Shown here piece by piece: positions 1 through 59,330 of a stretch of DNA of 64,000 nt (within the stretch, counting starts at the first letter, position 1; every line of letters begins with the position of its first letter). Both the position numbers and the translations under genes were made by a program. Source of the stretch: Candidatus Micrarchaeota archaeon (lineage in GTDB: Archaea > Micrarchaeota > Micrarchaeia > Norongarragalinales > UBA8480); the NCBI GenBank assembly GCA_043805855.1, contig JAZDHP010000005.1, positions 1,132 through 65,131 on the forward strand, written 5' to 3'. The notes beneath the pieces are model-generated. The model ran no database searches, was not told the origin of the DNA, and saw nothing but the letters and a program-made list of their open reading frames with translations.

Positions 1-3000
1 ATCTTGGTTTACCCATGCTACAGTCCAGTTCATCTGTGCGTTCATTCTACTAATGTCGAACATGCCGCCACTAGACGCATCTGGGTATCCAGATGAACCA
101 AATTGACCGTTGTACATACCTACGCTATTTTGACCATTCATACCATTCGCGCCATATGCATTTTGCTGCCCAAATGCTCCGTATTGATTTTGTGCAAATG
201 GATCAGTGCCAAGCGCAGCTGACCGCGGCACTCCAACTGCCCCGTATTGTCCAGGTGCCGCTGCATATTGCTGCACTGGATTACCGTATTGATCTGTTAA
301 GCCCATTCTCTGGTAAGTTTGCGCGTAGCCGCCCATTGGAGGGGATAAGTAAGAAGCTGCGTCGGGGAATCGCGGGTCGTACAAATTAGTTGGCTGGTAC
401 GAGCCATAAAACATGTTGGAAAACGTGTCAATTATCAAGCGCGGCGGTTGAAAAACATTTCCGTTAATGTAAATTATTCCATTTGCAGTTGTGTTTCCAT
501 TTGTTGAAGTTGAAGTGCAAGAGTTTTCAATTTGTATAGGCGCGTCTAAACTGCGCGTTCCAGTGCGCGGGTCAGTTGAGCTAATTTCAATTTGACATGA
601 CTCGCGCGAGTTTGGAATAAGCGTCAACACACGCGTACGCCCTGGCTTAAAGTTAGGCAAGCGGTATTCCAATGTTCCGTTTTGCCCACCTTGTGCGCTT
701 ACCTGCGTTAAGCCCGGCCCGTTTACAACAACGCACGCTGGGTCAACGTAAATATCTGCAGTTAGTTCAACGTCAAGATTATTTGTAACACGCAGTTGTG
801 TCGAATTGCAGGATAGAGAAATAAAATCAGGTTGGTCAAATTCAAAAAATAGTGAAACTTTGCTTGTAATTTCTTCAGTTACAGGAACAAACCTATCACG
901 CGAGGCAGTTACAACAAAAGTTCCAGGCGCAACTGTACGTATACGTTTCATTACGTAAATTCCATTTTCGCCGTTGTTAGTTGTACTATCGCCTGTGATT
1001 TGTGCGGGTACGTCGCCGTCAAACGGAGAACCACTCTCTTCTTCAAAAGAAAGCGTGGCATCTGTCACTGGAGAACCACTTGAAGTTTTAATTGTAATTT
1101 TTAAATCTTTTGCTTTTCCAACTTCAAATTCAGAAGGAGTTAACTGCGTTATTGAAAGCGCACCAGTTCCTTGTATAACTGCAAAAGAGCGAGAGTGAGT
1201 TGCAATTGCACCTCGTGCGTCGCCGAATTCAACTGTAAATGGAACAAAGTCAGCTGGAATTGCACCAACTGCGTTTATAGAACCAGTGTACAATTCTTTT
1301 GCCTCTACTAAAAGTACGCGGCTGCTTGTATCATCATCGTTGAACGTCGCCGTACCATCTCCACTGTAATCACTTAAAGTTGCAAGTGGAGTTGTAGATG
1401 AAATTTTTACATATGCGCTTGAACCTTCAACTGCACCAAAGCTACGCACTTCATAATTTAACGTAAATGGCCGGTTTATTGTTGAGATAAACGGAGAGCC
1501 AACTGGTTGCAGCTGCTGGCTAGAAGTAAAGTAAATTGTTATACACGCTGAACCGTCGTCGTTGCAAACGTTGCTTCCCTCTACAAGGCCAAATTCTTTG
1601 TCAATTGTAGTTGCGTAGCACTCGTCTTTTCCCTGGCTTCTACGTTCAAGTTTTAACTCTTCGTCAAAAGGAGCTCTTGCAAATTTACCATTTTGCACTG
1701 CAAATGCACGGTAGTGAAATGCTAATTTATCTTTCGATGGATCTGCAGTTGGCTTTACAAAAACCCTAGCCGTTAGTTCAACTACTCCACTTATTCCATT
1801 GTAGTCAACTTGAACCCATTTCTTCCCCTCACTGTTCACGTCGCTGTTTAGCAAATCATTTGTGCACTCGCTTCCAGCGTTGTAAGTTGTTGAGTGAGTT
1901 GCAACTGGGTTGCCAATTGCCGACGGCGTAAAGGAAAATGCCTTAATTACAATTGGGTCATTTGCAGTTGACTGTTCTTCGCCAACACGTAGGAAAATTC
2001 CCTGGCGGTTTGAACCATTTGCAAAACTCGCTGCGAATTTAGCAGTGTACATTCTGCCTTTTTCAATTGCCGGCGCGTTTAGAATGTCTCTACCTTTGTC
2101 GTCGACAAGTGAAACTAAATTAATTATAGTTTGGTCGCGAAACGCTTGCGCTAAGAGGAAAACGTTAAGTTGCTTAGTTTGATCTGGAGAAACGAAAACT
2201 TTGTCAGAAAGGTAAGATTCAAACCCGTCGCCAGATGCAACTAGGTAAATATCGCGGTTTGCCCAAACTCCTTCAAGTAAACATGAACCTTCACTGTTCG
2301 TAGTGCAGTTTGAAACCGCTTGGCCGCCTTGCGAGTCGACAAAAGCAGTTACGTGGCTGTTTGCAACTGGGTTTGAGTCGACTAAATCTTTTGCAAATAC
2401 CCTTATTGCACCAACTGGACGCGTTAATGTAAATGTAATTACGCGTTCTTCGTTTTCTGAAAATGCAACTTCAAAAACGTCGCTTTGTCCAGTTGCACTG
2501 TCAAGCGTTGCGAATAAACGTAGTGAAACGTCAGTGGGGATTCCTTCAAAAGTAGCTTTTCCATCTGGACCAGTTAATGCAAATATTCCATATAGCCTAC
2601 CAGCTGCGTCTTGTAATTCAATGTGTGCTCCGCTTGCTGGCGTTAAATCTGCGTTTAAAACTTCCGCATCGAATTTAACGTTGTTCCCAGCTGCAAATGC
2701 AACTAACATAAATGTAGAATCACGGTTTGCCACTGTTGAAATTAAAGGAAGAAACCCATCTGCGGTTATTGCAACGTAAATATCTTCAAGTGCAATGTTA
2801 GACGCGAGGTTTAACTCAACGCGACCGTTGTCGTCAGTTACACCACTTGCAATTTGGCGGTTAGAATCACTTGCGAATATCAAAACATTTGCAGCTGGAA
2901 TTTCCGCGCTTGCGTCGTTGTTAACTGTAATGGAAATTTTTTGGCCTGCACCAGCAGTTATTGAAAGTAGTTGAACTGAAAATTCTAACTCTTCATCGGC

Positions 3001-4008
3001 AGTTATTTCGCTGGAATTAGTAGTGTATTGAGAGAGATTATCACTTTGCGGAATTACCTTTACATAAACACTAGTTCCAATTGATGCAACTTCTGGAAAG
3101 CGAGCTACTCCGCTTTCAACTAAATCTTCGGCAAGTGGAGTTGACGTACCATCTTGGAATAACTCTACGCGAGCGTTCACTAAATTACCTTGGCTGTCTG
3201 TAACTCTAACAATTACAGTTCCTTTTATAGATTGGTCACCGCCATTATCGCGGTCGCCGTTCACTTCGGTTAATTGAATTGTAACTTGACCATCATTTGC
3301 CTGTACACTACGCTGTGCGTCTTCAAAATTTTCAGCTTGTACATTTAACGAAAGTACAGTGTCAAGAGAATCTAACTTAAGCACAGCTGTGCCGTCTGGC
3401 TGCGTTTCAACACTCCCCTGCACTCCAGTTGAAAGAGATTGAAAGTTTACAACTGCACCGCGCACTGGCGAATTCGTCGCTGCGCTTATAACCGTGACAA
3501 GAAAATCAACAGTTGTAGGCGTCAGTGAATTTAACCTAACATTTACACTCGTTGCTGCACCGCTAAAAGAAATTCGTTGGTTAACTGGAACAAAGCCATC
3601 TTTAGAAATTTTTACAACTGCTTGTTTGTTAGTTGGAACATTTTCAAAAGTAACAACGCCATTAACTGTATTTTTCGTTGCAAAATCAGTTCCGTCAACT
3701 ACAATTGTCACTGGAATAGTTGAATTTTCAGCTCCTGCAACATGCACAGTTACAGTTGCAGACGAGGGTATAAACGAAGACGAAGCAACGAAGAAAATGC
3801 CACCAAGCACAAGCAGGATAAGCGCAATTGCAACTGGAAATGAAGGAATTCCCCGACTTTCAATTGGCTCAACAAAATACTTGTAAAGGTCAACCCCTTT
3901 GTCGTGCAAATTATCTAGTAAAGCGTAGTACTTGTCTTCGACTTTATAGTAAAAAGCCTTTAATTTTCCAAGTAACCCAGTATCCTCTTCCTCTTGGTCG
4001 TACGGCAT
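1..4008 (-). CDS. Giant surface protein, 5' portion (gene continues beyond window start). N-terminal cytoplasmic tail plus TM anchor, repeated Ig/CARDB-like beta-rich domains, Q/Y/G/N-rich low-complexity tail. Paralogous in architecture to the 14660..21940 protein.
   Basis: Reverse-strand ATG at 4008-4006. Manual translation gives MPYDQEEEDTGLLGKLKAFYYKVEDKYYALLDNLHDKGVDLYKYFVEPIESRGIPSFPVAIALILLVLGGIFF... The frame checked open at 4008, 420, 360 and 60 with no stop. It is absent from the ORF track only because it runs off the edge. Only short plus-strand ORFs are listed in this 4 kb. Confidence 0.8.
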   Translation of the reverse strand, partial: MPYDQEEEDTGLLGKLKAFYYKVEDKYYALLDNLHDKGVDLYKYFVEPIESRGIPSFPVAIALILLVLGGIFFVASSSFIPSSATVTVHVAGAENSTIPVTIVVDGTDFATKNTVNGVVTFENVPTNKQAVVKISKDGFVPVNQRISFSGAATSVNVRLNSLTPTTVDFLVTVISAATNSPVRGAVVNFQSLSTGVQGSVETQPDGTAVLKLDSLDTVLSLNVQAENFEDAQRSVQANDGQVTIQLTEVNGDRDNGGDQSIKGTVIVRVTDSQGNLVNARVELFQDGTSTPLAEDLVESGVARFPEVASIGTSVYVKVIPQSDNLSQYTTNSSEITADEELEFSVQLLSITAGAGQKISITVNNDASAEIPAANVLIFASDSNRQIASGVTDDNGRVELNLASNIALEDIYVAITADGFLPLISTVANRDSTFMLVAFAAGNNVKFDAEVLNADLTPASGAHIELQDAAGRLYGIFALTGPDGKATFEGIPTDVSLRLFATLDSATGQSDVFEVAFSENEERVITFTLTRPVGAIRVFAKDLVDSNPVANSHVTAFVDSQGGQAVSNCTTNSEGSCLLEGVWANRDIYLVASGDGFESYLSDKVFVSPDQTKQLNVFLLAQAFRDQTIINLVSLVDDKGRDILNAPAIEKGRMYTAKFAASFANGSNRQGIFLRVGEEQSTANDPIVIKAFSFTPSAIGNPVATHSTTYNAGSECTNDLLNSDVNSEGKKWVQVDYNGISGVVELTARVFVKPTADPSKDKLAFHYRAFAVQNGKFARAPFDEELKLERRSQGKDECYATTIDKEFGLVEGSNVCNDDGSACITIYFTSSQQLQPVGSPFISTINRPFTLNYEVRSFGAVEGSSAYVKISSTTPLATLSDYSGDGTATFNDDDTSSRVLLVEAKELYTGSINAVGAIPADFVPFTVEFGDARGAIATHSRSFAVIQGTGALSITQLTPSEFEVGKAKDLKITIKTSSGSPVTDATLSFEEESGSPFDGDVPAQITGDSTTNNGENGIYVMKRIRTVAPGTFVVTASRDRFVPVTEEITSKVSLFFEFDQPDFISLSCNSTQLRVTNNLDVELTADIYVDPACVVVNGPGLTQVSAQGGQNGTLEYRLPNFKPGRTRVLTLIPNSRESCQIEISSTDPRTGTRSLDAPIQIENSCTSTSTNGNTTANGIIYINGNVFQPPRLIIDTFSNMFYGSYQPTNLYDPRFPDAASYLSPPMGGYAQTYQRMGLTDQYGNPVQQYAAAPGQYGAVGVPRSAALGTDPFAQNQYGAFGQQNAYGANGMNGQNSVGMYNGQFGSSGYPDASSGGMFDISRMNAQMNWTVAWVNQD

Positions 4009-4041
4009 GTTTTAAACGAGCCCCCCTCTACAAAAGATAGC

Positions 4042-4110
4042 GTTTATAACTATTTAAATGCCATCACCTCCCGAAAATAAGTAACGAGGTGCAGGCGTGG
4101 CCAAAAAGAA
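4042..4110. repeat. Direct repeat copy 1 (gtttataactatttaaatgccatcacc-tcccgaaaataagtaacgaggtgcaggcgtggccaaaaag)
   Basis: Near-identical to 4170..4246. Differences are a 14-C homopolymer in copy 2 versus CCTCCC here, plus a few substitutions. Confidence 0.85.
4051..4058 (-). promoter_or_regulatory. Archaeal TATA-box-like element (TTTAAATA on minus strand) about 43-50 nt upstream of the giant-protein start codon
   Basis: Minus-strand TTTAAATA sits inside the first copy of a duplicated ~70-bp element. Its position fits an archaeal TATA/BRE promoter with a short leader. Confidence 0.35.
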
Positions 4111-4169
4111 ACTATTAGCACTAAGCAATAATTTTGGCGACTCAAAGCACCTTTGTGAAAGGGGCTTTG

Positions 4170-4246
4170 GTTTATAACTATTTAAATGCCATCACCCCCC
4201 CCCCCCCCGAAAATAAGTAAAGAAGTGCAGGCATGGCCAAAGACAA
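4170..4246. repeat. Direct repeat copy 2, containing a C14 homopolymer tract (4195..4208)
   Basis: tttataactatttaaatgccatcacc + C14 + gaaaataagtaaagaagtgcaggcatggccaaagac. It lies between the divergent giant gene (-) and the 4406 gene (+). Confidence 0.85.
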
Positions 4247-4405
4247 AACACCTTAATTTCATTTCTTTTTGTCCACTTTTTACCCCCTTGTTATTAAAAA
4301 CCCAAAAATAGTTACGCTAATATGGTGTTAACGGCCAATACAGAAAACCTTAAATATGACTTCATCACTTTTAGTTATTAATTCGTAATCAGAAGTGATG
4401 TAAAC

Positions 4406-4678
4406 ATGTCTAAAAAAGTAAAAGGAATAAAAAGTGCACCAACGCTAAATACCGTCTTCATGGTGGAAAATGTCTTAAAAAAAATGAACAAAAGTGTTAT
4501 TAAAGTAGCGGAGTTGAAAAAAATGTTACCTCGGCAAGTTAATCACAACACGCTCATTACTATTTTAGAATACCTTGAAGAGAGTAACAAAATTGCCGTT
4601 TCCTTAAAAGGAATTTCTTGGATACATAACGCAAACAAAAATTTAAGGCGCGCCATTAGCCGGGGCTTAGAATTATGA
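4406..4678 (+). CDS. Small DNA-binding-like protein, putative antitoxin partner of the downstream RelE/ParE-like gene
   Basis: 90 aa. It overlaps the next ORF by 4 nt (ATGA). A TATA-like tttaaat sits about 30 nt upstream. Assignment is by operon position only. Confidence 0.35.
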   Translation: MSKKVKGIKSAPTLNTVFMVENVLKKMNKSVIKVAELKKMLPRQVNHNTLITILEYLEESNKIAVSLKGISWIHNANKNLRRAISRGLEL

Positions 4679-5031
4679 ACAAAATCGTCAGAGTAGTACT
4701 TTCTCCAGAAGCTGAAGAAACGTATAAAATCTTGAATAGCCGCGCTGCTAGTTCTAAACTTGACAGTAGTATTTTAAAAGCGATTAACAAAAAAGTGGAA
4801 TTAATAAAAGTAAACACTCATTATGGAAACCCAATTTCAAAAGATAAGATTCCAAAAGAGTATAAACAAAAATACGGTGTGACTAATTTATTTCGAGTTG
4901 AACTGCCTCAATTTTGGCGAATGCTATATTCATTAGTTGACGGCAACTCACAAGTGGAAATAATTGCATTTGTACTAGAAATAAGCAACCACGGCAAATA
5001 CAATAAACTATTCAGGTACCACAAAAAATGA
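4675..5031 (+). CDS. RelE/ParE-superfamily toxin-like protein
   Basis: 118 aa. The C-terminal segment NLFRVELPQFWRMLYSLVDGNSQVEIIAFVLEISNHGKY resembles the RelE/ParE core (LWELR..G.YRIIY.V.D...V.IL.IGHR..Y). Small, with overlapping operon partners. Confidence 0.45.
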   Translation: MNKIVRVVLSPEAEETYKILNSRAASSKLDSSILKAINKKVELIKVNTHYGNPISKDKIPKEYKQKYGVTNLFRVELPQFWRMLYSLVDGNSQVEIIAFVLEISNHGKYNKLFRYHKK

Positions 5032-14659: not shown

Positions 14660-17600
14660 TCAATCATTATCTCCATTTTTAGCATTGTTACAATTAACGT
14701 CTGGTTTGAAATCTTTTCCTTCAAGCTCATCACTTACTCCATCGTTAGATATGACTGCACATACTTGTGGCAACGTCACTTTATTACCGCTGCGTAAATT
14801 ATACTCTCGCTCTGCGGTTTTTAAAACACGAACTGAAATTCCTGGGCTAAGGCCGCTAGCGGAACAAGATATCGTATCGTCAAGTTTAGCGGGTAAGAAG
14901 AATGGCCCGGGATTTGCAGCTTTCCATAAGTTTTCCACTGAAATTCCGCCAATGGCGCCAGCTAATCCAAGAATTATTGGACACCCAGCAATGTTTGTGC
15001 CCGGAGCAAAGCAAAGTAAACCAAGTGCAAAGCCAGTTAGTCCAATTGAATTGCCTCCACCGCAATTTCGCCCGATGGCTTTTTCATTATCGCGAACTTC
15101 AAACAAGTACTGGCCATTATTATTTCCTGTCCCTACAAACCGTAAGATAGCGGTAGTGCCACTTATCTTAAGCTTTGTAACATCATTTACACTAAAATTG
15201 TAAATTCCTTCGGTATTATCTGAGTCCGAAATTGCAAAATCCGCTAATTTCTTTATTGGTTTTCTAAATTTAACTTGGCGAATTAATTTATCCTCATCGC
15301 TATACACGTCAAAATTATAATGATAGTCTTCATTTAGCCACTTATCAAGTGGACCAAAAACAGAATAGAGTTCAACTTCAGCGACATCGACATCAACGCT
15401 ACCAACCCCCGTAAATGCCTTTGGTTTCTTTTTTAATTGTATAAACTTAGCTAATAAAAGAGGCGTTTCTACATTATCTATAGATTCTCCGCATATACGA
15501 GAATTGCCAACCCCAACACCTTCTCCAGATCGACCTAATACGTCTCCTAAACCTATCGGGTTGTCATAATGCAAATTACAGTCCATTTTATCACTGAATG
15601 CAGGGTCGTAAGCTGTAACAAACTTTATTTCTGGTTTTGATAAGTCAATTCCACCTAATCTAAAGTATTGCCCAGTAGCAAGTTGCACCGAATCACCGAT
15701 TTCTAACTGACATCTTAGCCAGTTTGGATTAGGCGCACTTATCTTTACACAATTTTTATCATAGTAAGCCGTATTATCAAGTCTAAAAGAAGCTTTAGCT
15801 TCACTAGTGTGGCAATCTTCATTTAAGTTTGGCCAATACTTACACATGTACCTTGTAGAGCTAGGCCTACTTTCTATTTCTGCTCTGAATGCAACTGGCT
15901 TTTTCACTTTGATGTGATTATTAGATATAACGTCAGCAGCAAGGAAAGAACTAGCGTCAAATGACACAGAACTGACCCCGTTATATATCTGCTTTGAACC
16001 TAAATCAATTAAACCAATTTGATCTATTTCGTTTTGATATTCAACGCGAAATTTAGCGGTCTCACCATCATATTTTGGATCAGTGCACAAACGTAAGATA
16101 AAACTATCTCCAGGAGCTATAGCATCGCCATCTTTCAAGTAACTAATTGTACCATCTACGTTGGTTTTTTGAAGTTCAATTGCGCTTGTAAGCGGTGCGC
16201 CTATTCTACCGCAAGCGTCGAAAGTTGCTTTGTTTAACTCAGTCGGCAAAGAAAACGGCGTTTCTGGGTAGTTTACAAACGATAACGGCGTAGCTTGCCC
16301 TTCTGCTTTTTGACCTGCCTGAGTCGTAACGATTGTTGGCCTAAAGCAATCAGCTGGATCACCATTCTTTTGCACACATTGATAGTATCGAGTTTCTAGA
16401 GTTGAAACGCCTCCTCCAACAGGCGCAGCTGTTTGTAGTTCTACTTTTATAGTATATTCATTTACCGCGTTTACTCCGACGTCACAACGGGAGAATTCAA
16501 GCGAATCAACTGCAGTTTCAGCAAGTGTTTTGTCAGCAACTTTGTAATTAGGCGCTTTTAGCGTGTACTTCTTTTGGTTTAGCTCGGTTACTTTTTGCGT
16601 TGTTTTATCTTTGCATGAATACTGAACCGCTATATACACGTCTTTTTTTCCTAGCGTTGCTAATCGTGTTTTGTCTAGTTCCACTTTAGTTGACACTTTA
16701 GTTAAACGATTCAAGTGTTCTGGAAAAGTTAGTCGAAAGATGTTAAACGTTGCTGGAGTTGCTGGTTTAAAGTAGCCGGGAGTTATTTTGTCAATTAGTA
16801 ATTGTCGGTCTGTTAAAGTAACTATACAATCATCTGAAACTTTTTGACCTGTTGGGTAAATTGCGCTTGCTTTGAAGCCAAATCTTTGACCCGTATCTCC
16901 TTTTACAGTATACTTTTGAGTATCGGCTTCTTTCGCACCGGTAAATGTTTGTTCATCAGTGAAAGAACCTCCAGTTTGTTGTTTTGTTACAATTACTTTA
17001 CGTTCATTTCCACCAGATGGAAAACTAGATTTTATTGTTAGTTCTTCACCAGACATGGCGTTACCATTGCAAACATCTTTTGTTCCGGCTAAAACTTGAA
17101 TTTTAGGTTGCTTGTTAGACGCACTTACTATTGGAGCCTCCACATGAGCCGGAGGTTCTGCTGGTTCAGCGGGGTTTAATTGTACTTGAGCCTCTGGTGC
17201 TTCTTTTGCTACTTTTGTTTGTTCGTAGGTAGCCATTATTTTAACTTCTACTTTTGCGTTTACATTTTGTGCTGAGGACACAAGTAGCTTTACAAATACT
17301 TTGCCGTCGTTTTCAAGTGCTTTTATTGCTCCTGCGTCGTCTTTAAAGTCGCAGTTTGTAATTAGCTCGTTGTCTTTTAGTTCAGCGTTGCAGCTAGCTT
17401 GTGATAGTTCACTGTTGTCTTTTGTTTGCACTGAAATTATCTTATACTTGTCAAATACAATTGGGCACGTTAGCTGCACTGTGACTGGGCTTGCGAATTT
17501 CCAAGCTGGCGTTACACTGACTTTCCTTGTTTCAGTTTCTCCGCATGCTGCGTCCCAAGTTTGTGCACCAAATGGAATTCCCGTTGGGCCGCCCATCATT

Positions 17601-20600
17601 GGACCTTGTGGTGCTGCAATTACATTTACGCGGATTGTCTTGCGCGCTCCATCTGGAAGTGTAACTTCGAGGTTTCCAGTTGCAGGGTAAGGTTGGCCAA
17701 CAAAGGAATAGTCGGCAGTTACTGTGATTGCGTCTTTTGTGCATTCGTCGATTTGTACAGCGTCTTTAACTGAATTTTGTGAAAACCCGTTGCCCATCTG
17801 GTATTGATTGTAGCCGTTTCCATTGTAATTATTGTAATTTGGCCCATATTGAGAGCCAGGTAATCCAACTGGATACGCACCTGGTCGATTGTACTGGTTT
17901 GCACCGTAGCCGTAATCTTGCCTTAGGATCCCGCCTGTTGAGCGGTCGTAGCTTACTTGTTGTTGCTGGTTGTAAGGTTGAAACGCTTGGTTGTACGGCG
18001 TTTGGTAGCCGTTGTAAGATAAAGGCGACATAAATGCTTGGGCTTGGTAAGCGCCTTGGCCAGTTTGGCACGCGCTGCAAGTTGCGCTAAGATGTACTGG
18101 CAATTGACTGCTTGTTGGTGCAGTTACTGGATTTGGAACGCATGCGCCGCACCCCCATTGCGAGGGAGTAACTTGCTGGCATTGGTTGCATTGCGATTGG
18201 CCGTTCATTGGCATTGTACACGCGGTGCACCACCATAAAACTGGAGTTGGCATTCCGCCTAGCACGCCACCTTGGTAAGTTTGACCGTAACCTTGACCAT
18301 ATCCTTGGCTATAACCTTGCTGGTATTGGCCAGCGTAGTTCATTCTCAAGCCAGATAAACGACAAGTTGGATCTGCTGATAAGCGTAGTGGAATTGAATA
18401 CGAGTCTTGCAAAAATGGCGGCATTGTAATTAATGTAATTGCGCCTGGCAATGGCGATGAATCGCTTCCAGTTGCAGCTGAGTTAATGCAACCTGGGCAT
18501 TCAACATCAACCATTAGAGGCAATTCTTCTGCTACTCTATACGTGCCAGCGCGTGCGGTAAACGTAGCAAGGCAGTTTGTGTTTGAAGTGACGTTGTTGA
18601 GAATTTTCAACGATAGCGTAGAGTCGCTGTTTGGCTCTATTGTTATAGATGTGGGAAATACTTTTAGTGGCACTGGATCGCCACCGCAATTAATTGACGT
18701 AGCAACGCGTATTGGTTCGTTCAATGCATTTGAAAGTGTAACTTGCTGTGCTTGTGGTTCAAGTGAAGACCCGGTAAATTCCATTGACTCGGGGTCAATT
18801 GCCAAGAAGTTTTTACCTTGCACAGTTACAGAGCATGTTTCAAGTGTCTTGAACCCTTCTGCTTCGACGCGGGCGCCGATTTCTCCAAGCCCAGTTGGGT
18901 TAACGTCAACTCGGTAGCGGCCAGTTAAACCATTGTTCTGCGAGCCGTCGCCTAGAAGTTGTTCTGGTTCGTTTCCAGAAAACGGCGAATTAGCACATTC
19001 GTATAAACCAACTGCTGCGGTTTCAACGTAGTTGTTGTTCTTGTCACGCACAACTATAGTTATTTTACTGTCTTGAAGTGCTGGCACTGTTGACGGCGCT
19101 ATTGTTGCTGTAAAGGCGTTTGTTCCAGATACAGTTAATTGCACTGGAATTTGAAATGTTTTACTTCCGCTGCGTAGTGTAAATGTCAACGGCGCGTCTT
19201 GGCTTACTTGCAACGGCGTTAAAGTCATTGACATTTTTGCTTTTTTGTTTGGAAGCGAAGTAAAGGGAAGGTTGAAAGTGCGGCCGCTTGTTGTTATTGC
19301 GCTAGCTGTAGTTGTAGCTGTTCCATCGTCTGCGAATGAAACTTTTTCTAAGCCGCTTAGAGTTTGGCGTGAGTTTTTCACGTTGAAGTGCTCAGTAGTT
19401 AAGCCAAGTGAATCAATTGAAACTGGCGAAAGTAATTCTAGTTCAAAGGTAAAGTCTTTTGCAATTTGCGGTTGGTATGTTGACGGGTTTCCCTGCGATG
19501 CACTATCAAAAAGGATTGCTTTCCAGCAAACGTCATCTTCAGTGCAAGTTAGTGTTTGTTGCGTTACTGGGATTGATTGAGTTACAACGCGCATTTGACA
19601 AGTGTCTTCTGGAGTTAAACGTAAACCTTCATCAATTTGTTGGCGTAGCGAGTCAAGTAGTTCAGTGTCGCTTGGGTAAATTAAAGGTAAGCCGTCTTTG
19701 AATGCAAATGCCTTGTAGTTTATTTTAATTTCAGCTCCTGCTTCTGCGGTTTTTGAAACTTTTACATTAACGACAAATTCTCTTGTGCCTGTAAAGCCAC
19801 GTGGGAACGAGAAGTAAACCCATTTCATTTCTTCACCAGCGTTGGTTTTGCCATTGTAACAAGATGAAGTTGAAGTGGCTGATGTTGACGTGGTTGAATT
19901 ATCTAACTCGCCGTTGTTTTCAGTGCTTTCCACGCTTTTTAATTCAGAGTCACTTTGAACATAAGGCGCGCCGTTGGAGTTGAATGAAGTTATAACCGCT
20001 GAACTCTCCGCAGTTGTTTGTTCGTCGCCAACTTGAACGTAAAACCCGGCGTTTTCGTCAACGTTTTGCGGCATGTTAACTGCGAATTTTGCACTGTACG
20101 TTTCTGCGTTGGCAACTTCTTTTGCTTTTACTCCCCGCGAGTCAAATAAACCAAGGAAGTTTACAGTTGCGCTTTGCGCGAGTGAAACTGGAAATAGTGT
20201 AACTGTTTCTTTTGCCTGTTCTGCTGGCGAAAATGTTTTTGTTGAAGTAACATAAGTTAAATATCCTGGCGCAGTTGCGCGTATTGTAAATTCTTTATTT
20301 GCAGCAACTGGCAAAACACAAGTACCGTTTAGCACGGTGCACGAAGAAACTGGAATTCCCTCTACAAGCGCTTCAATTGCACCGTTTGGGATTAGCTGGT
20401 CTGTTGCTAAATCTTTTAACGTAATTGAAACATTTGCAGGCATCGCAACTAAGTCAACCGTTAAAGATAACGGGGCGCTTGTTACGTCGACAACGTCACT
20501 TTGTCCACTTGCGGATTGTTTGGAAGCCTTTGCGTAAACTTTGTAAGCTGCACCTTCAACGGCTAATGGGATTGTCGCGTTTGCAATTCCTTCTCCGCCG

Positions 20601-21940
20601 GCAGTTAATGCTGGAATACCAAGGAAGTAGCCGCCGAATCTATATAAGGCAACTTCTGCGTTTGAAGCGGGAAACCCATCTTCGCGTACAACTACAGTAA
20701 CTGAAACTGAGTTTCCAGGAAGCACTTCTTCAAGGGCAATTGTTTTAACTGCGCCTGCTGCGATTCCAGCTAGGAAGCCAGGTAAGTAACCTTCACTATA
20801 AGCAGTTGCATATGCGTTTGTACTTTGCGAAACTGTAAATGTTGCTTCGCCGTTTGCGTTTGTATCTTGAGATTCAATTAAATTGTTAGACGCTGCGTCG
20901 AATAATTTTACAACGCCTTCAATTCCAGTTCTCTCGGCGTTTAGCAAAGTTATTGTAATTGTACTTTGCGGTGTTGAACGGCGAGCTAGTTGAATTGGTA
21001 ACTCGTTTGCGTTTGCAGTTGGAGTAAATTCCTGCGAGTAAGTTTCAAACTGCGGGTGCTTTACTTGAACTGTGAAAGCTTCGCCATATGAAACGTTTTC
21101 AAAAACTACACTGCCATCTTGATAAGTGCGTTCTTTTTTCTTTTCAACGCTAGTTGCAACGTCGATTAAAGTTACAACTGCATTTTGTACTCCGCTGCCC
21201 GCGGAAGAAACGTGAATTGTGAAATCTCCAACGCTAGTTGGATCCCGCTGCGTAAGCTGTACTGTTATTGTTATTGGCGTTGTGCTTTCAAGTTGTTCTA
21301 CTGTTACTGGCTGTTGAGTCGCTTGTACTCCAACAGCAGTTACAGAAATTGTTCCCTGCGATAGCATTGACTGCTCAACAGTTATTATCGCGTTGCCGCT
21401 TGCATCGGTTGTTGCCAACGGTGCGAAGTCACCGTTTGCAAATGTTAATTGCACTTGCGCACCTTGAACAGATTGACCTTGCGAGTCAACTACTCTAACA
21501 TTTACATCTTGAGTTTCTGGTTGCAGCGAGCGTAATGTAATCGAACCTGAAAGTGAAGAAACATCACGCGATGCTGGCGTAAATCCGTCTGCACTTACAC
21601 GTATAATTGCATTTACTGGAACGCCTTGTAGGCTAACAGTTCCATCTTGGCCTGCGCGTGTTTCTGAAATCGATTGGTTGTTTACTAGCACTTGTACAAC
21701 TGCTCCTGAAACTGACCTGCCGAGAGTGTCTTTAACTGTTAGTGAAACATTTTTCTTTTCTACAAACACCCCTGGCGCGAGGTAAAAAGCCGCAATTGCG
21801 AGTATTAATATTAAAACAAGCGGCACAATTAAATGTGGAAACGGCAATCCCTTTTCTGCTAGTTTTTCAACTAACTCTAGGTATTTTTCTTTTATATTTT
21901 GTAAAAAGTTTGGTTCAGCTTGTTCGGCCATTACACGCAC
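14660..21940 (-). CDS. Giant (2426 aa) cell-surface protein: N-terminal TM anchor, many Ig/CARDB/carboxypeptidase-regulatory-like beta domains, Cys-rich and Q/Y/G/N-rich low-complexity region
   Basis: Single uninterrupted 7.3-kb ORF. N-terminus ...PFPHLIVPLVLILILAIAAFYLAPGVF is a signal anchor. Motifs such as TVxDxxGxPVxGAxVxL recur. The low-complexity stretch is QYQQGYSQGYGQGYGQTYQGG...YNQAFQPYNQQQQ. Confidence 0.85.
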   Translation of the reverse strand: MRVMAEQAEPNFLQNIKEKYLELVEKLAEKGLPFPHLIVPLVLILILAIAAFYLAPGVFVEKKNVSLTVKDTLGRSVSGAVVQVLVNNQSISETRAGQDGTVSLQGVPVNAIIRVSADGFTPASRDVSSLSGSITLRSLQPETQDVNVRVVDSQGQSVQGAQVQLTFANGDFAPLATTDASGNAIITVEQSMLSQGTISVTAVGVQATQQPVTVEQLESTTPITITVQLTQRDPTSVGDFTIHVSSAGSGVQNAVVTLIDVATSVEKKKERTYQDGSVVFENVSYGEAFTVQVKHPQFETYSQEFTPTANANELPIQLARRSTPQSTITITLLNAERTGIEGVVKLFDAASNNLIESQDTNANGEATFTVSQSTNAYATAYSEGYLPGFLAGIAAGAVKTIALEEVLPGNSVSVTVVVREDGFPASNAEVALYRFGGYFLGIPALTAGGEGIANATIPLAVEGAAYKVYAKASKQSASGQSDVVDVTSAPLSLTVDLVAMPANVSITLKDLATDQLIPNGAIEALVEGIPVSSCTVLNGTCVLPVAANKEFTIRATAPGYLTYVTSTKTFSPAEQAKETVTLFPVSLAQSATVNFLGLFDSRGVKAKEVANAETYSAKFAVNMPQNVDENAGFYVQVGDEQTTAESSAVITSFNSNGAPYVQSDSELKSVESTENNGELDNSTTSTSATSTSSCYNGKTNAGEEMKWVYFSFPRGFTGTREFVVNVKVSKTAEAGAEIKINYKAFAFKDGLPLIYPSDTELLDSLRQQIDEGLRLTPEDTCQMRVVTQSIPVTQQTLTCTEDDVCWKAILFDSASQGNPSTYQPQIAKDFTFELELLSPVSIDSLGLTTEHFNVKNSRQTLSGLEKVSFADDGTATTTASAITTSGRTFNLPFTSLPNKKAKMSMTLTPLQVSQDAPLTFTLRSGSKTFQIPVQLTVSGTNAFTATIAPSTVPALQDSKITIVVRDKNNNYVETAAVGLYECANSPFSGNEPEQLLGDGSQNNGLTGRYRVDVNPTGLGEIGARVEAEGFKTLETCSVTVQGKNFLAIDPESMEFTGSSLEPQAQQVTLSNALNEPIRVATSINCGGDPVPLKVFPTSITIEPNSDSTLSLKILNNVTSNTNCLATFTARAGTYRVAEELPLMVDVECPGCINSAATGSDSSPLPGAITLITMPPFLQDSYSIPLRLSADPTCRLSGLRMNYAGQYQQGYSQGYGQGYGQTYQGGVLGGMPTPVLWWCTACTMPMNGQSQCNQCQQVTPSQWGCGACVPNPVTAPTSSQLPVHLSATCSACQTGQGAYQAQAFMSPLSYNGYQTPYNQAFQPYNQQQQVSYDRSTGGILRQDYGYGANQYNRPGAYPVGLPGSQYGPNYNNYNGNGYNQYQMGNGFSQNSVKDAVQIDECTKDAITVTADYSFVGQPYPATGNLEVTLPDGARKTIRVNVIAAPQGPMMGGPTGIPFGAQTWDAACGETETRKVSVTPAWKFASPVTVQLTCPIVFDKYKIISVQTKDNSELSQASCNAELKDNELITNCDFKDDAGAIKALENDGKVFVKLLVSSAQNVNAKVEVKIMATYEQTKVAKEAPEAQVQLNPAEPAEPPAHVEAPIVSASNKQPKIQVLAGTKDVCNGNAMSGEELTIKSSFPSGGNERKVIVTKQQTGGSFTDEQTFTGAKEADTQKYTVKGDTGQRFGFKASAIYPTGQKVSDDCIVTLTDRQLLIDKITPGYFKPATPATFNIFRLTFPEHLNRLTKVSTKVELDKTRLATLGKKDVYIAVQYSCKDKTTQKVTELNQKKYTLKAPNYKVADKTLAETAVDSLEFSRCDVGVNAVNEYTIKVELQTAAPVGGGVSTLETRYYQCVQKNGDPADCFRPTIVTTQAGQKAEGQATPLSFVNYPETPFSLPTELNKATFDACGRIGAPLTSAIELQKTNVDGTISYLKDGDAIAPGDSFILRLCTDPKYDGETAKFRVEYQNEIDQIGLIDLGSKQIYNGVSSVSFDASSFLAADVISNNHIKVKKPVAFRAEIESRPSSTRYMCKYWPNLNEDCHTSEAKASFRLDNTAYYDKNCVKISAPNPNWLRCQLEIGDSVQLATGQYFRLGGIDLSKPEIKFVTAYDPAFSDKMDCNLHYDNPIGLGDVLGRSGEGVGVGNSRICGESIDNVETPLLLAKFIQLKKKPKAFTGVGSVDVDVAEVELYSVFGPLDKWLNEDYHYNFDVYSDEDKLIRQVKFRKPIKKLADFAISDSDNTEGIYNFSVNDVTKLKISGTTAILRFVGTGNNNGQYLFEVRDNEKAIGRNCGGGNSIGLTGFALGLLCFAPGTNIAGCPIILGLAGAIGGISVENLWKAANPGPFFLPAKLDDTISCSASGLSPGISVRVLKTAEREYNLRSGNKVTLPQVCAVISNDGVSDELEGKDFKPDVNCNNAKNGDND

Positions 21941-40025: not shown

Positions 40026-41099
40026 ATGGCTAAAGAAGAATTGGAAAAGGCAAGGAAAGCACTAGAAAAAATGCCTAGACACGGCTGGCTGCCTGTACCT
40101 TTGAAAATAGCGCTTTGCAAAAGTCACCTGGATGGCGAAATAACTTCAGCTGAATTAAATTCACTCGGGGAACACTTTGTCACTATTGAAGACCCAAAAG
40201 ACGCGCAAGACATGTTGAAAAGCGCAACTGAACAATTACAAACCACTAACGCCAGAGTTGTGTTTTTAAATTTACATAGAGAAGCTGAAAAACTTGCCCT
40301 TCAAGTTAAAGCAATTAAAAACGCACCAGCTAATGATAGACTTTTCGTTGAAACAGTTGACCGCGATTCAAGACAAAAGTTAGAAATTCTCCCGCTAGAT
40401 TTACTTAATGAACTTAAAGCTGGGTTTGCTGAAAAAAAGCTAGATAAACTCGAGCTTGAAAACGCACGCTACGCGACTAACTTTTTCATTACCTTAGCAA
40501 GGGTAATTCCAAGCCCCTCAACCGCCGCGAAAATCCCCCCCACTTGGAGAAACGCAGTAACCGCAATTGCAAATAAAACAATGGAAATTCCCGAAGTTGA
40601 AGGTAAAGCTAGATACTTACACCGCGCGTTAACTTACATTGCCTATTGCGAAAAAGATTTACCTTTTTGGCACCGGCCTTTGACTCCTCAAGATGCAGTA
40701 CATATTGAAAACTTTGCAAAAGCACAAACCGCGCGGCTTGGAACACGGCACATTTCACCAACTACTTTAAGTGAATTACTTTACGTAAAAGGAATTAAAC
40801 CAAGGGACAAATATGGCCGCACAATTAAACTAAATGGTAGAATGACTTTGAAACATGCAGATATATTTAAACGAGAAATTGAACGTAGGCTTGACCCAAT
40901 TCACTTTAAAGTGCGAGTTGCACAAACTACATTAGAACCAAAGGCAAAAAGAAACATAGAAGTAACCGCACTTAGCTCAGAAGGCGACGATTTCTTAAGT
41001 GAAATAAAAACCCCAATATATCGAAGAAGGGTGGCTTTAACATTTAAAAAAATTACTAGACCTTTGTGGCCAAGGGCAAAAAGAGCAGAATTTAATTAA
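40026..41099 (+). CDS. Paralog family B member 1 (RHGWL module at N-terminus)
   Basis: 357 aa. KMPRHGWLPVPLKIAL...LNSLGEHFVTIEDPKDAQ, and C-terminal LDPIHF. Confidence 0.65.
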   Translation: MAKEELEKARKALEKMPRHGWLPVPLKIALCKSHLDGEITSAELNSLGEHFVTIEDPKDAQDMLKSATEQLQTTNARVVFLNLHREAEKLALQVKAIKNAPANDRLFVETVDRDSRQKLEILPLDLLNELKAGFAEKKLDKLELENARYATNFFITLARVIPSPSTAAKIPPTWRNAVTAIANKTMEIPEVEGKARYLHRALTYIAYCEKDLPFWHRPLTPQDAVHIENFAKAQTARLGTRHISPTTLSELLYVKGIKPRDKYGRTIKLNGRMTLKHADIFKREIERRLDPIHFKVRVAQTTLEPKAKRNIEVTALSSEGDDFLSEIKTPIYRRRVALTFKKITRPLWPRAKRAEFN

Positions 41100-44893: not shown

Positions 44894-47800
44894 ATGAATT
44901 TAAAAGGCAATTTAAGCGCATTTTTCATAATTATATTTACTCTTGAAATCTTCTCTCCATTAGCGTTCGCTTATACTCCGCTTCCACTTGGTTCGCCAGC
45001 AACAACAATACCAACTACAATTGGCTCGCGTTACAACGTTCCTGGCCAGTGTGAAGTTAATGAAATGACTCCCGAACAAGTGCAACTATTCTGGATACAA
45101 ACGCAGAACTTCCGCGGCGACCAAATTAACTCAAAAACAGACGAGGCGTTAATGACTACAAAACCATCTGGAACTACGATTAATTTAAACGTCAATAATT
45201 TTCCAGCTGACTCTGGCGAAAAAGTCCATCCATTTGTAGATATTGCACGGTTATTAGGCCTAGATGAAAAAAAGAGAAAAGAAGCAGCGCAGTTTCTTGG
45301 AAAAAGAGAAACAGATCGGATAAGCAACAAAGAAGCGCATCAACTTGCAAAGAAATATGAAAAAAACGAAGGTGAGTTCGGCACTTTGTTAGATGCTTTC
45401 CGCGGAACTGCAAGTGAAGAGAGTCCTGCTTATGAAAGCTATAAGTTGAAAACTAATGGCGGCGGCGAAATTCCTTCAACTGCATTGCAAGGCAAGACGC
45501 CAATTGACGAGTGTATAATTAACAACGCGCACGTGCAAGGCAAAGCTTCTTACGTTGTGTCAACTTCCAAAGACGTTGCAATTGCAGCTGACAGTTCCCA
45601 AACTCAAAGCGAAAAAGTAAACTTTTTACATTCAACTAACACGCTTGGCAGTTTAGACTTGCAAGGCGCAAGCACGTTGATAATACCAAAGCACTATAAG
45701 GAACTTGTAACTAGATTAAAAAAATGGCTAGCAGCTGACTTATTAGCTTCAATTGGGCAAACTACTGTTTTCTTTGGTGAAAAAAATGCACTTAGCAAAA
45801 GCCAAGAGAAGCTAAAGGAAATTGTAGAACGCAAAAGAGACTTTGGTTTAGACCAAATCGCTTTTAGCCGCATTCAAGACAGCCCACTGAAACTGGAAGT
45901 TTATGGACTCGGGAGTAGGCTAAGCGTTACAAAAAGCGAGCTACAACAGTCTGTTGAAAAAATGCAACTTAATTTCATACGAATGCATGCGGGAAACGTA
46001 GAAATCACAGACGACGTCATTGCGCGGTTAAACACAGACCCGCAGTTTGCAACGCGTTATAATTCATTGCAAAAAATTCAAAATGAACTTGAAAGTGCTA
46101 CGTCACTTAAACCAACTGACCCTGCAGATGATATTTATCAAAAGTATAAAAATGACCTTCACGGAGTAGCAGGAATAAATGACGCCGATCAAATTGAAAT
46201 TCAAAATGCGCAAGAACGATTAAGGACAAATCAAGATTATGTTAAAACACTTAATGATTTAAATGGAAAAACTTACAAAGCTGATCTAGAAAAGGTTAAA
46301 AGAAAACTGGCAGGTAGAACTGGGGAGTCTTGGTTTCGTTTAGCAATGGGAATGGCGTGGCTTGGACCTGGCCGCTTTGTGTTTGAATTAGCTGATGGCG
46401 TTGACTTTGTTCCAATTTCAAACAAGGCATTTGCAGAAAACTACGTTACAATAATGGCAGATAATACCGACTTAGCGGGAGAATTCAGGCGAGCAACAAA
46501 CTGGGTGTTATCTGGAACAGTTACTGACATGCTTTCAGATGCAACTGGCGAAGGCATTCCAACTGCAGCGTACCGCGTTGGGAATTTAATTATAGTTAAC
46601 AACCCAGTTGAAGATCAGACGGTAACCGGCACTTCAGTTACTAGCTTACAAAACAACGGCGGCAAATGGAACATAGGCACAGAATGGAAAGGAAAGTCAG
46701 ATGCATTAGTTGCAGAACAGCTAACAACTGAAAATGAATACGCTCGCTTGCCAATGGAAGTAAAAGGACAAGCTTGGAATTTGAAAATAAGGGCAAGGCA
46801 AGAATTTTCTACTTTTTATGACACAATGATATACCTAGCGCCGCTACTAAGTTGGCGAATACTAGGCGCAACAGATTATGCTGTAACAATTTTTAGAGTA
46901 GCAGTTTATGACTTTTACGTTACAGATTTTGTTAACCCTGCCGCGTTTAAGAAAGACGAAGTTTGCTCAGATGAAGAAATTGACAAATATGTAAATTGGT
47001 ATATGGGAGCAACTTTGGTAAACCAAGGCTTAGGTTGGGCGCCAATCTTAACCCCCTGGTTTAAAGGACTCAGTACAGTTACAAAAGTAAGCGCTGCTCT
47101 AAACAGCAAGACGAAGATTTTTACAGGGCCATTTATTGATAAATACGTAAAGTCAATAGGAAAGGTGCTTGACCCAGTTACCTTAGCACAGATGTACATT
47201 GCAGGTGAAGCATTGGACTACGCTTCAAATTGCAAGGACGACCAGTATACTATTTTAGCATACCAGCAGTTAAAGAAAAAGAGCGCAGCTACAATTTCAG
47301 ACAGATTACAGTCAATTGGAGGTAGTGATTTCTTAAGCAAGTTAAACGTCGGACAAGCAGTAAAGGGAGTTGGCCAGCAAGTTGACACAGCTACAATGTC
47401 TGAATACGTTAACTTCCGAGCTGTTTTGGAAAACCAAGTTTCTTCAATAACTGCAGATGAAATTTACTTCCTGCACTTTAAAGGCGATTCAATAGAATGG
47501 ATTAACAACATAAAAACAAACACGGCACAACCAGAAATGTGCCAACGCGAGTGCCTTGACAGTAAAACTAAAGTTTGCTGTAGAGATGCAACTGGAACCG
47601 AATGCACAGATAAAGCAACCGGCGTAAAAACACAAATAGCCGGCAAAGAAAGAAGTTTAATGGCAAAAAGATTTACCAACTTAGCGTTGGTTTTAACTCC
47701 AAACAAGTACATTTCAACTTCGCTTGGCGGCTGCCCCGGAAATATTTTACAAATTGACAGTAGTAAAAACATTCAATTAACAAGCGGTACAACTTGCACC

Positions 47801-48958
47801 GGCGGAACGTGCATCTTGAATCAATTACAGTATTTAACCGGCAGGCAAGTGAACAGTGACTTGACAAGCGTGCTTGGAAAAGTTACTGGAATTTACACTA
47901 CTAGCGGTTCAGTTCAAATTTCAGATGGAGCAATTAGGTTCAACCCGAGCGAAGCAATTAATGACCAAATGGAAATAAGAAGCCCAGGCGCAGGCGTAAT
48001 ACAAACCGCAAGTTCAAGCGAAGAGTTGGCTTACAAACAAGCAGCGATGCTTGCAATTGACAACAACGGCGGCGTTACACTCAGCGGTTACATTACTTCT
48101 AAATCACCTGAACAAGTGCCAGCCGGCGAACTTATAACAATAATGACCGAACGCGGTCGCATAAACTATATGGGCGGCGGGAGAGTACAAATATTCTTAC
48201 ACACACTAGCACAGGGAGACGCTGGTTTGATAAATGGATTTACAACAATGCCAGTTCAATACAACCAATGCCCCGGCTACAACGCACCTGGAATAAAAAT
48301 ATCTAATTTACAGGGATACGCTGGCCCCGGCGACCAAGTTGCCGCACAGTTAAACGCAGCTTTACAACAAATTCAAGGCTGTAACGGAATGCAAGTGCTT
48401 GAAACAAAAGATAAGAAAATAATGTTCGGAACAAACGCAAACGGAGAACCAGTTTTGAGAATTATTGACAAAAACACAGGAGAAGTTACCGAAGCGCGTA
48501 TAAATGGTCCAATTCGCCGAGAGGGTAACGAAATTATAGTTCCAACTGACAAGGGAGAATTTAGGTTCAATATAGGAATGGGCGAAAACGGCCAGCCAAT
48601 GCTTTCACTAACAGGACCAAACGGGTTACAAGAAAATGGCCCATTGTTAAGAGCAAATGGACTTGGCGGCATGTTAGTTTTTGACCCGGCAACAGGACAA
48701 TGGCATGTGTTAAACGGCCAAGATTTGGCAATGAACGACAACTTTGCAAAGTACGGCACATCATACGGCCGCGATACAAAAGGAAACTTCGTCGGCTCAC
48801 CTGGAGCAGACTTCCTGTCACCTTCATCTAAAAGAGTTTCAACAAGCGGCAACTCACTCGCTTCGCTACCTTCATGGCCAGAGGAATCGCCAATTTTGCT
48901 AGTAGTTATTGTACTTACGTTGTTAGCCGTTGCGTTTGTACGCTGGAGAAAAGTTTAA
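44894..48958 (+). CDS. Large secreted protein (1354 aa) with N-terminal signal peptide and C-terminal motif-TM-basic tail (sortase-type sorting-signal architecture)
   Basis: N-terminus MNLKGNLSAFFIIIFTLEIFSPLAFAYTP. C-terminus ...SLASLPSWPEESPILLVVIVLTLLAVAFVRWRKV-stop. Confidence 0.75.
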   Translation: MNLKGNLSAFFIIIFTLEIFSPLAFAYTPLPLGSPATTIPTTIGSRYNVPGQCEVNEMTPEQVQLFWIQTQNFRGDQINSKTDEALMTTKPSGTTINLNVNNFPADSGEKVHPFVDIARLLGLDEKKRKEAAQFLGKRETDRISNKEAHQLAKKYEKNEGEFGTLLDAFRGTASEESPAYESYKLKTNGGGEIPSTALQGKTPIDECIINNAHVQGKASYVVSTSKDVAIAADSSQTQSEKVNFLHSTNTLGSLDLQGASTLIIPKHYKELVTRLKKWLAADLLASIGQTTVFFGEKNALSKSQEKLKEIVERKRDFGLDQIAFSRIQDSPLKLEVYGLGSRLSVTKSELQQSVEKMQLNFIRMHAGNVEITDDVIARLNTDPQFATRYNSLQKIQNELESATSLKPTDPADDIYQKYKNDLHGVAGINDADQIEIQNAQERLRTNQDYVKTLNDLNGKTYKADLEKVKRKLAGRTGESWFRLAMGMAWLGPGRFVFELADGVDFVPISNKAFAENYVTIMADNTDLAGEFRRATNWVLSGTVTDMLSDATGEGIPTAAYRVGNLIIVNNPVEDQTVTGTSVTSLQNNGGKWNIGTEWKGKSDALVAEQLTTENEYARLPMEVKGQAWNLKIRARQEFSTFYDTMIYLAPLLSWRILGATDYAVTIFRVAVYDFYVTDFVNPAAFKKDEVCSDEEIDKYVNWYMGATLVNQGLGWAPILTPWFKGLSTVTKVSAALNSKTKIFTGPFIDKYVKSIGKVLDPVTLAQMYIAGEALDYASNCKDDQYTILAYQQLKKKSAATISDRLQSIGGSDFLSKLNVGQAVKGVGQQVDTATMSEYVNFRAVLENQVSSITADEIYFLHFKGDSIEWINNIKTNTAQPEMCQRECLDSKTKVCCRDATGTECTDKATGVKTQIAGKERSLMAKRFTNLALVLTPNKYISTSLGGCPGNILQIDSSKNIQLTSGTTCTGGTCILNQLQYLTGRQVNSDLTSVLGKVTGIYTTSGSVQISDGAIRFNPSEAINDQMEIRSPGAGVIQTASSSEELAYKQAAMLAIDNNGGVTLSGYITSKSPEQVPAGELITIMTERGRINYMGGGRVQIFLHTLAQGDAGLINGFTTMPVQYNQCPGYNAPGIKISNLQGYAGPGDQVAAQLNAALQQIQGCNGMQVLETKDKKIMFGTNANGEPVLRIIDKNTGEVTEARINGPIRREGNEIIVPTDKGEFRFNIGMGENGQPMLSLTGPNGLQENGPLLRANGLGGMLVFDPATGQWHVLNGQDLAMNDNFAKYGTSYGRDTKGNFVGSPGADFLSPSSKRVSTSGNSLASLPSWPEESPILLVVIVLTLLAVAFVRWRKV

Positions 48959-56600: not shown

Positions 56601-56811
56601 CCCAGGGTAGCTTGTCTGTCAGAAAGGACTCCCATTAACGGAGATGCCTTTGTTCGTTAAGCCCCACTTTCGTGTCTGCGTTCCATTTTGTTAAGAACAC
56701 AGTCAGGCCAGCATTTGTCTTTAACCCTCTACAGCGGATTTCTAACCCGCTTGAGCTGACCATTAGGCGCCTTTGTTATTTTTTCGAAGGCGTACCGCTT
56801 ACTGGCTTTCC

Positions 56812-59227: not shown

Positions 59228-59330
59228 TCGCTGAACCTTTTCTTTCTCAAAGAAATAAAACGTTCACGAAAAGAAAGATTTTAATTTTCTTTTCCGTAGA
59301 CGCTTTTCTTTTCCCAAAAGAAAAGGGTCT
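59228..59330. repeat. Cluster of three short A/T hairpins (CTTTTCTTT-N-AAAGAAAAG type) forming an expansion segment inside 23S
   Basis: ccttttctttctcaaagaaataaaacg / cgaaaagaaagattttaattttcttttccg / cgcttttcttttcccaaaagaaaaggg. Same hairpin family as in the ITS and tRNA introns. Confidence 0.6.

Follow-up and report, generated by a model that had tools for sequence, protein, structure and literature searches.

The intergenic region upstream of a giant surface-protein gene in a “Candidatus Micrarchaeota” genome contains two direct repeats, and comparison with related loci supports the repeated unit as the promoter module of that gene. At the level of sequence, this comparison confirmed that the promoter duplication is real and lineage specific, with a single copy in all relatives, including a ∼92%-identical sister lineage. 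We regard, with moderate confidence, a tandem module duplication with a proximal working promoter and a slippage-grown homopolymer tract as the best explanation of the locus. Throughout, “the window” denotes the whole analyzed stretch of 64,000 nucleotides (64 kb), and positions are counted from its first base.

The repeats lie between two divergent genes, as had been predicted. To the left is the 5′ part of the giant gene (positions 1 to 4008, minus strand; ATG at 4008), of which 1,336 codons are present before the gene runs off the window. The start is MPYDQEEEDTGLLGKLKAFYYK, and the predicted product carries an N-terminal membrane anchor and matches the Pfam domains CarboxypepD_reg, bMG3 (Ig-like), and PEGA. 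Its N terminus aligns to those of orthologs from residue 1, and the orthologs reach up to 2,910 amino acids (aa). To the right is a 90-aa gene (4406 to 4678, plus strand), the first of an overlapping pair encoding 90- and 118-aa proteins. This gene has its own TATA-like box, CTTAAATA, at 4349 to 4356 (plus strand; −57), which is conserved in the sister lineage.

The overlapping pair (4406 to 5031, plus strand) is very strongly conserved across DPANN archaea. We found 1,664 homologs of the 118-aa protein at an E value of ≤1e-5, typically with 65 to 77% identity and in genomes labelled Micrarchaeota or Diapherotrites. The protein has no Pfam match, and a few of its homologs were named RelE by JGI. 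In other lineages, the pair occurs in different gene neighborhoods.

Each repeat is built of two segments, and the repeat as a whole exceeds chance expectation. The first segment spans 4042 to 4072 and 4170 to 4200, with a start-to-start spacing of 128 bp, and includes GTTTATAACTATTTAAATGCCATCACC, which is identical at 27 of 27 positions between 4042 to 4068 and 4170 to 4196. The second segment (4067 to 4111 and 4203 to 4247) is 45 nt long and 87% identical, with six substitutions and a spacing of 136 bp. The original prediction had located the two direct repeats correctly and had placed them 127 bp apart, a value that we correct to 128 and 136 bp for the two segments. Within the window, neither repeat half recurs elsewhere at up to three mismatches, and 0 of 100 shuffled sequences matched either half.

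The 8-nt register shift between the segments corresponds to the tract, which, as predicted, reads CCTCCC in copy 1 (4067 to 4072, plus strand) and is an uninterrupted run of 14 C's in copy 2 (4195 to 4208, plus strand). The interrupted form is also present in the sister lineage and is taken as the ancestral state. On the strand of the giant gene the long tract is G14. It lies upstream of the copy 2 TATA box, from which 8 nt separate it, in the order G14-TGATGGCA-TTTAAATA, just beyond the position of the transcription factor B recognition element (BRE). Apart from C14, no run of C or G in the window exceeds 7 nt, and 2e-5 C runs of at least 14 are expected; the only other C run above 6 nt is C7 at 40535 to 40541. 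No C or G run of ≥7 occurs in 76 kb of related loci. One long run in the window and none in relatives would fit a single local expansion better than a genome-wide strategy.

Copy 1, the proximal promoter module (4042 to 4111, minus strand; 70 nt), consists of the direct repeat with a left flank orthologous to that of the sister lineage. Copy 2, the distal module (4170 to 4247, minus strand; 78 nt), has a right half and a right flank that are orthologous to the sister sequence. Between them lies a unique 58-nt spacer (4112 to 4169) that is absent from the sister lineage and contains an 11-bp imperfect hairpin at 4143 to 4169. Searches of the window and of all the related loci collected found nothing homologous to it. 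A 12-nt match to the spacer, TATAACTATTTA, upstream of the 90-aa gene in one related locus (L013) was rejected as a spacer source, being a chance AT-rich match.

On the giant-gene strand, each copy reads ATGGCA-TTTAAATA. The predicted minus-strand motif was thus recovered at 4058 to 4051 in copy 1 and at 4186 to 4179 in copy 2, which places an exact TTTAAATA, matching the TATA box pattern TTTAWATA, 50 nt (−50) and 178 nt (−178) before the ATG. The copy 1 box (4051 to 4058, minus strand) is invariant in the orthologs; the copy 2 box occupies 4179 to 4186 (minus strand). Directly upstream of the TATA box, the block TGGC[AT] sits where a BRE would be; in copy 1, the full block is at 4059 to 4064 (minus strand), with TGGC invariant and A or T as the sixth base in eight aligned promoters. 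The BRE consensus of model archaea is purine rich, and ATGGCA does not resemble it.

The near-palindromic TATA core has this block on one side only, the giant-gene side. This one-sidedness points to transcription toward the giant gene and would fit a BRE-like polarity element. The module end of copy 1 is joined to the start codon by 4009 to 4041 (minus strand), which includes an initiator-region block, CGCTATCTTTT, the predicted start, and the leader. Applying the usual archaeal TATA-to-start distance, transcription from copy 1 is predicted to start near 4028 and to produce a leader of ∼20 nt, which carries GAGGGGGG and a G6 Shine-Dalgarno-like run at 4021 to 4026. The TATA-like boxes of other genes in the window fall into two classes, those at −28 to −35 (leaderless) and those farther upstream with GGTG-type leaders, and the giant gene, with its box at −50 and its G-rich leader, fits the leadered class. 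A scan for bacterial-type promoters and terminators, which is not relevant for an archaeon, returned nothing above shuffle level, and the minus strand did not fold better than shuffled versions (z = −1.3).

Since the TATA core (TATTTAAATA) is palindromic, it could also fire toward the plus strand, in which case the T-run at 4262 to 4281 would end a short RNA or a micro-ORF (GTG/ATG-GCC-AAA...). On this reading, the repeat would be a duplicated small gene, with the C tract between its TATA box and its start. A 26-codon ORF does open at the GTG at 4097 behind GAGGTG, copy 2 and the sister lineage have a 7-codon ORF (MAKDKTP and MAKEKTP), the high conservation between the window and the sister lineage stops close to the T-run, and the plus strand gives a marginal fold (z = −2.5), pairing 4097 to 4111 with 4262 to 4276. 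However, neither the length nor the sequence of the ORF is conserved between the copies or in distant orthologs, the BRE-position block flanks the TATA box solely toward the giant gene, and the 5-nt spacing from GGTG to the start codon falls short of the 7 to 11 nt at leadered genes of the window. There was also no Rfam match; the best hit, to a C/D-box model, scored 18 bits against a threshold of 44 bits (E = 0.41). We regard a plus-strand product as very improbable.

Several other candidate features were tried and rejected. Small ORFs in the repeat (26 and 7 codons on the plus strand; 31 and 22 codons, ending in VMAFK, on the minus strand) lack conservation between copies and in orthologs, have poor Shine-Dalgarno spacing, and were rejected as genes. 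An Rfam scan of the whole window at gathering thresholds found only rRNA, and a permissive scan of 3950 to 4450 gave one subthreshold C/D-box match; GTGATGG is similar to a C box but has no D box after it. The 6-bp dyad CACCTC/GAGGTG of copy 1 is weakened in the sister lineage and in copy 2, which argues against a conserved structure. A replication origin (ORB plus G-string) was dismissed given that the unit is the conserved gene-proximal promoter and occurs once in all relatives, and an att site or mobile-element ends were dismissed given that the copies are 58 nt apart and enclose nothing. A terminator reading of the repeat was rejected on context.

A search with a profile built on the conserved giant-protein N terminus retrieved orthologs (52 to 57% protein identity) from six distinct Micrarchaeota loci (L003, L004, L005, L009, L010/L011, and L012/L013) and further assemblies of the L012 type (L017 to L019). 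All six distinct loci have one copy of ATGGC[AT]-TTTAAATA in gene orientation. In five of these loci, 36 to 51 nt separate the TATA box from the ATG; in the sixth, L012/L013, the distance is 171 nt. When the two window copies were aligned with the promoters of L003, L004, L005, L009, L010, and L012, TGGC[AT]-TTTAAATA was the only invariant block across the eight sequences, and the sister lineage carries this block too. The invariance of the block, its promoter distance from the start codon, and its single-copy state in orthologs uphold the prediction of a duplicated promoter-like element. Comparison with orthologous intergenic regions had been put forward as a check on that prediction; when run, it found the promoter block in single copy in every relative.

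A semiconserved C-TAT-T/C-T block ∼10 nt after the TATA box is common to the orthologs. In the window, this block follows copy 1 only, as the duplication ends 9 nt past the TATA box. Farther from the gene, one stretch of the module's upstream half, GTTTCTTT..TTG.CACGCCTG, is recognizable in L010/L011 at a nearly equal distance from the TATA box, and both CACGCCTG and the T-rich block of 4209 to 4272 can be recognized there. The distance from this conserved upstream block to the TATA box is 33 nt in copy 1, 32 nt in L010, and 41 nt in copy 2.

Some orthologous loci have rearrangements of their own. L012/L013 and L017 to L019 contain an insert of ∼140 nt, with four consecutive hairpins, between the TATA box and the start codon, which explains the 171-nt distance in L012/L013. 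In these same loci, a VapBC-like (PIN) pair is inserted so that it separates the giant gene from the 90-aa gene. Structural change thus seems to affect the promoter region of this gene family readily. We also noted that codon 11 of the L009 ortholog is an in-frame TAG (MPKLDEEVDF*; L009 positions 3001 to 3033) and that the L013 ortholog (positions 1932 to 2984) was called as 350 aa and loses similarity after approximately residue 245, whereas its counterpart in L018/L019 has 2,910 aa. These anomalies could be pseudogenes, recoding, or assembly errors.

The closest comparison came from the sister lineage (L016), a 6.7-kb contig from run SRR22387754 with ∼92% nucleotide identity to the window. 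Among 15 billion proteins, this lineage, with its CCTCCC, was the only close relative, and a tract-length-tolerant scan of metagenome and genome contig collections for the exact element gave no match. The gene order is the same as in the window, with blastn blocks of 93.7% and 90.9% identity and a small-gene block of 82.5%. The intergenic region is 262 bp in the sister lineage versus 397 bp in the window and contains a single module copy. Its left flank and TATA half match copy 1, whereas copy 2 is the counterpart of its upstream half and right flank, from which it follows that the window has a net insertion of 136 bp. The inserted sequence is made up of the copy 1 upstream half, the 58-nt filler, the copy 2 TATA half, and extra C's.

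When the insertion is set aside by building a composite of the window sequence, 125 of the 130 nt (96.2%) upstream of the sister start codon match it. The background identity of the two lineages is 77.9% at 367 four-fold sites (P ∼ 1e-5 to 6e-9), and the next 132 nt upstream are 79.5% identical. The excess of 96.2% over 77.9% indicates that ∼130 nt upstream of the giant gene are under purifying selection. The segment from the copy 1 TATA box to the ATG is identical to that of the sister lineage, and the one difference in the 64 nt compared falls beyond the TATA box. Attached to copy 2 is the ancestral upstream control DNA (4209 to 4272, minus strand), the conserved far half of the 130-nt region, in which 62 of 66 aligned positions are identical to the sister sequence. 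The insertion falls in the middle of the constrained region, at the CCTCCC site. In the alignment, the tract coincides exactly with one possible insertion junction, and the order of duplication and tract growth is therefore not fixed.

The window derives from a metagenome-assembled genome, and the duplication and tract occur in one assembly only, the sole close relative having neither; moreover, homopolymers of ∼14 nt are error prone on several sequencing platforms. On these grounds, the real genome could lack the duplication or have a C run of another length. Against this, the unique 58-nt spacer physically joins the two units, which requires a real tandem arrangement, and the copies differ at 6 positions, which does not fit a collapsed or duplicated-read product. 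On either side of the tract, the sequence keeps register with the CCTCCC flanks of copy 1 and the sister lineage, whereas poly-G dark-cycle errors continue to the end of a read and would not return to the correct register. We thus consider an assembly or sequencing artefact quite unlikely overall. The original prediction had called an artefact equally possible; for the duplication it is unlikely, but the exact length of the C run may be affected.

We propose that the module comprises the TATA box TTTAAATA, the ATGGCA block at the BRE position, and ∼45 nt of upstream control DNA and that it was probably duplicated in tandem after the split from the closest known relative, with the 58-nt filler placed between the copies. 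Compared with tandem (P1/P2) promoters, in which two complete promoters in series each have a start region, the two copies share a BRE-position block and a TATA box, and the conserved block after the TATA box is in the proximal copy only. Copy 1 alone is followed by the initiator block, leader, and ATG, identical to those of the sister lineage, and for this reason it is the best candidate for the working promoter, having probably kept the ancestral TATA-initiator-leader-ATG geometry. Copy 2 would have kept the ancestral far-upstream DNA and acquired foreign sequence where transcription would start. It may be a weak second promoter, with a start near 4156 and a leader of ∼150 nt, or a decaying duplicate.

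The TATA half of copy 2 is identical to that of copy 1 at 27 of 27 positions, versus 6 differences in 45 positions between the upstream halves (P ∼ 0.05, one-sided, hypergeometric), a weak hint that the distal TATA box could also be constrained or recently converted. The C14 tract probably originated in copy 2, where the T of the ancestral CCTCCC would have changed to C, giving C6, before replication slippage extended the run to C14. In line with this, archaeal replicative polymerases slip on repeats in vitro, according to one report (PMC4134008). The tract adds 8 bp between the distal BRE/TATA and the conserved upstream DNA and would at most tune the distal copy. We infer the start sites and the slippage origin of the tract and, from distances, the copy that fires.

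Elsewhere in the window, the rRNA operon (55952 to 63768, minus strand) is unusually long, with a 23S rRNA gene spanning 4,253 nt versus a 2,987-nt model and a 16S rRNA gene spanning 2,437 nt versus a 1,478-nt model. Four ORFs for LAGLIDADG homing endonucleases (55952 to 56518, 56954 to 57619, 58015 to 58575, and 62398 to 62931) lie in or beside the long insertions, suggesting that these are probably rRNA introns. The 16S-23S spacer (approximately 60965 to 61225, minus strand) contains tRNA-Ala-like pieces, GGGCTCGTAGCGCAGTGGTAGCGCGCCTGCTTTGCA ... GGTCGCGGGTTCAAA ... AATCCCGTCGAGTCCA, that are apparently interrupted by two long insertions and that may constitute a multi-intron tRNA; ARAGORN called no tRNA in the whole window. 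The 3′ end of the 16S rRNA reads ...GATCACCTCCA. A perfect 9-nt complement of this end (GATCACCTCC) is present in copy 1 at 4063 to 4071 (minus strand) as GGAGGTGAT, just upstream of the TATA box and overlapped by an ATG. The site reads GGAGGTAAT in the sister lineage and GGGGGTGAT in copy 2, and the copy 1 version would be transcribed only from the distal promoter, if that promoter fired.

The original prediction had likened the repeats and tract to the classic arrangement for phase-variable expression of surface proteins. Its core, a duplicated promoter, was borne out by comparative conservation, whereas phase-variable expression was not supported by the geometry or by the lone tract. The classic arrangement is not supported here: the tract lies outside the BRE-TATA-start interval, copy 1 provides an intact proximal promoter, and the 64 kb contain no other long tract. 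With 8 nt between G14 and the distal TATA box downstream of it, changes in tract length would leave core-promoter spacing unchanged, and with an intact proximal promoter the tract would not be able to switch the giant gene on or off. A modulatory role of the tract is possible.

Such a role could take the form of homopolymer-driven phase or “volume” variation, in which frequent length changes by slippage would shift the conserved upstream control DNA (4209 to 4272) in spacing or helical phase relative to the distal BRE/TATA and thereby raise or lower transcription of the giant gene from the distal promoter, much like the Bordetella fim C-stretch. C14 is a long, uninterrupted mononucleotide tract in a promoter region, long enough for hypermutability and a strong outlier, and the regulatory DNA around it is under constraint and belongs to a surface-protein gene. 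It separates a conserved upstream block from the distal TATA box, and the distance between these two elements is 41 nt in copy 2 versus 33 nt in copy 1 and 32 nt in L010. Also compatible with variation are the perfectly preserved distal TATA half and the T-interrupted tract of the sister lineage at the same site, a pattern also seen among Bordetella fim promoters (PMC1891110). However, the tract is outside the BRE-TATA-start interval on the gene strand, and the proximal promoter is identical to that of the sister lineage from TATA to ATG, which means that the gene is expected to be expressed at any tract length. In addition, copy 2 lacks the conserved initiator-region block, and there is one long tract in 64 kb, while organisms using such a strategy usually have many. 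On balance, we think phase or volume variation unlikely.

Other surface-protein genes gave no parallel. No further long C or G tract occurs at surface-protein genes in the 64-kb window, including a second giant gene at 14660 to 21940 (minus strand), or in the 76 kb of relatives. The second giant gene encodes 2,426 aa with CarboxypepD_reg and Big_1 domains, and another long gene, at 44894 to 48958 (plus strand), encodes 1,354 aa with no Pfam match. Neither the ATGGCATTTAAATA block nor a homopolymer is present upstream of either gene.

A more specific version holds that G14 is an archaeal contingency element that varies the distance between an upstream site and the second BRE/TATA and causes cells to differ stochastically in the amount of the protein or of a long-leader mRNA. 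We consider this distinctly unlikely; if true, it would be a case of SSR control of a TATA/BRE promoter, of which we found no characterized archaeal example in the literature. A 2025 review of phase variation treats a survey of archaea for phase-variable loci as future work (PMC11868660), and a 2025 preprint mentions archaeal contingency loci only generically. On present evidence, the locus is an ordinary, lineage-specific promoter rearrangement in a DPANN archaeon, with a homopolymer that probably grew by slippage.

DPANN archaea depend on touching their host cells, a contact in which giant surface proteins are believed to be the mediators. The locus described here provides a defined, conserved promoter for one giant surface-protein family, with ∼130 nt of constrained upstream DNA, as well as a natural structural variant of that promoter (two copies versus one) and a long homopolymer at a defined promoter position. 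Length variation of the tract among reads, if it were seen, would make the locus a concrete and testable archaeal candidate for variation of expression mediated by a repeat.

Among known systems, the tract most resembles the C-stretch of the Bordetella pertussis fim2, fim3, and fimX promoters (Willems et al. 1990), in which length changes alter transcription, as summarized in a later report (PMC1891110). According to that report, some Bordetella species have C13 or C22 in fim promoters versus C6TC3 in another. The likeness lies in an uninterrupted stretch of ∼10 to 18 C's between an upstream regulatory site and the core promoter of a surface-structure gene, and the T-interrupted forms of sister species (C6TC3 and C9TC8) parallel the CCTCCC of copy 1 and L016. 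In Bordetella, length variation and its effect on transcription have been demonstrated, whereas the tract described here is known from the sequence of one assembly. The promoter here is also of the archaeal TATA/BRE type, and the distal copy, whose BRE the tract precedes, is redundant, since an intact proximal promoter exists.

The duplication itself is similar to tandem duplications with templated or untemplated filler DNA at the junction, which are products of template switching or end joining. The shared features are the succession of unit, 58-nt unrelated insert, and unit and the single unit at the same site in a sister lineage. Here, the available sequence contains no filler donor, and such a mechanism is suggested by structure alone. 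As a promoter, each unit resembles archaeal BRE/TATA core promoters, among them those of leaderless and short-leader genes, in having an exact TTTAAATA at the usual distance from the gene and a one-sided conserved block upstream of the TATA box, in a geometry like that of other genes in the window. It differs from those of model archaea in having ATGGCA in place of a purine-rich consensus and in the arrangement of two modules in series, 128 bp apart.
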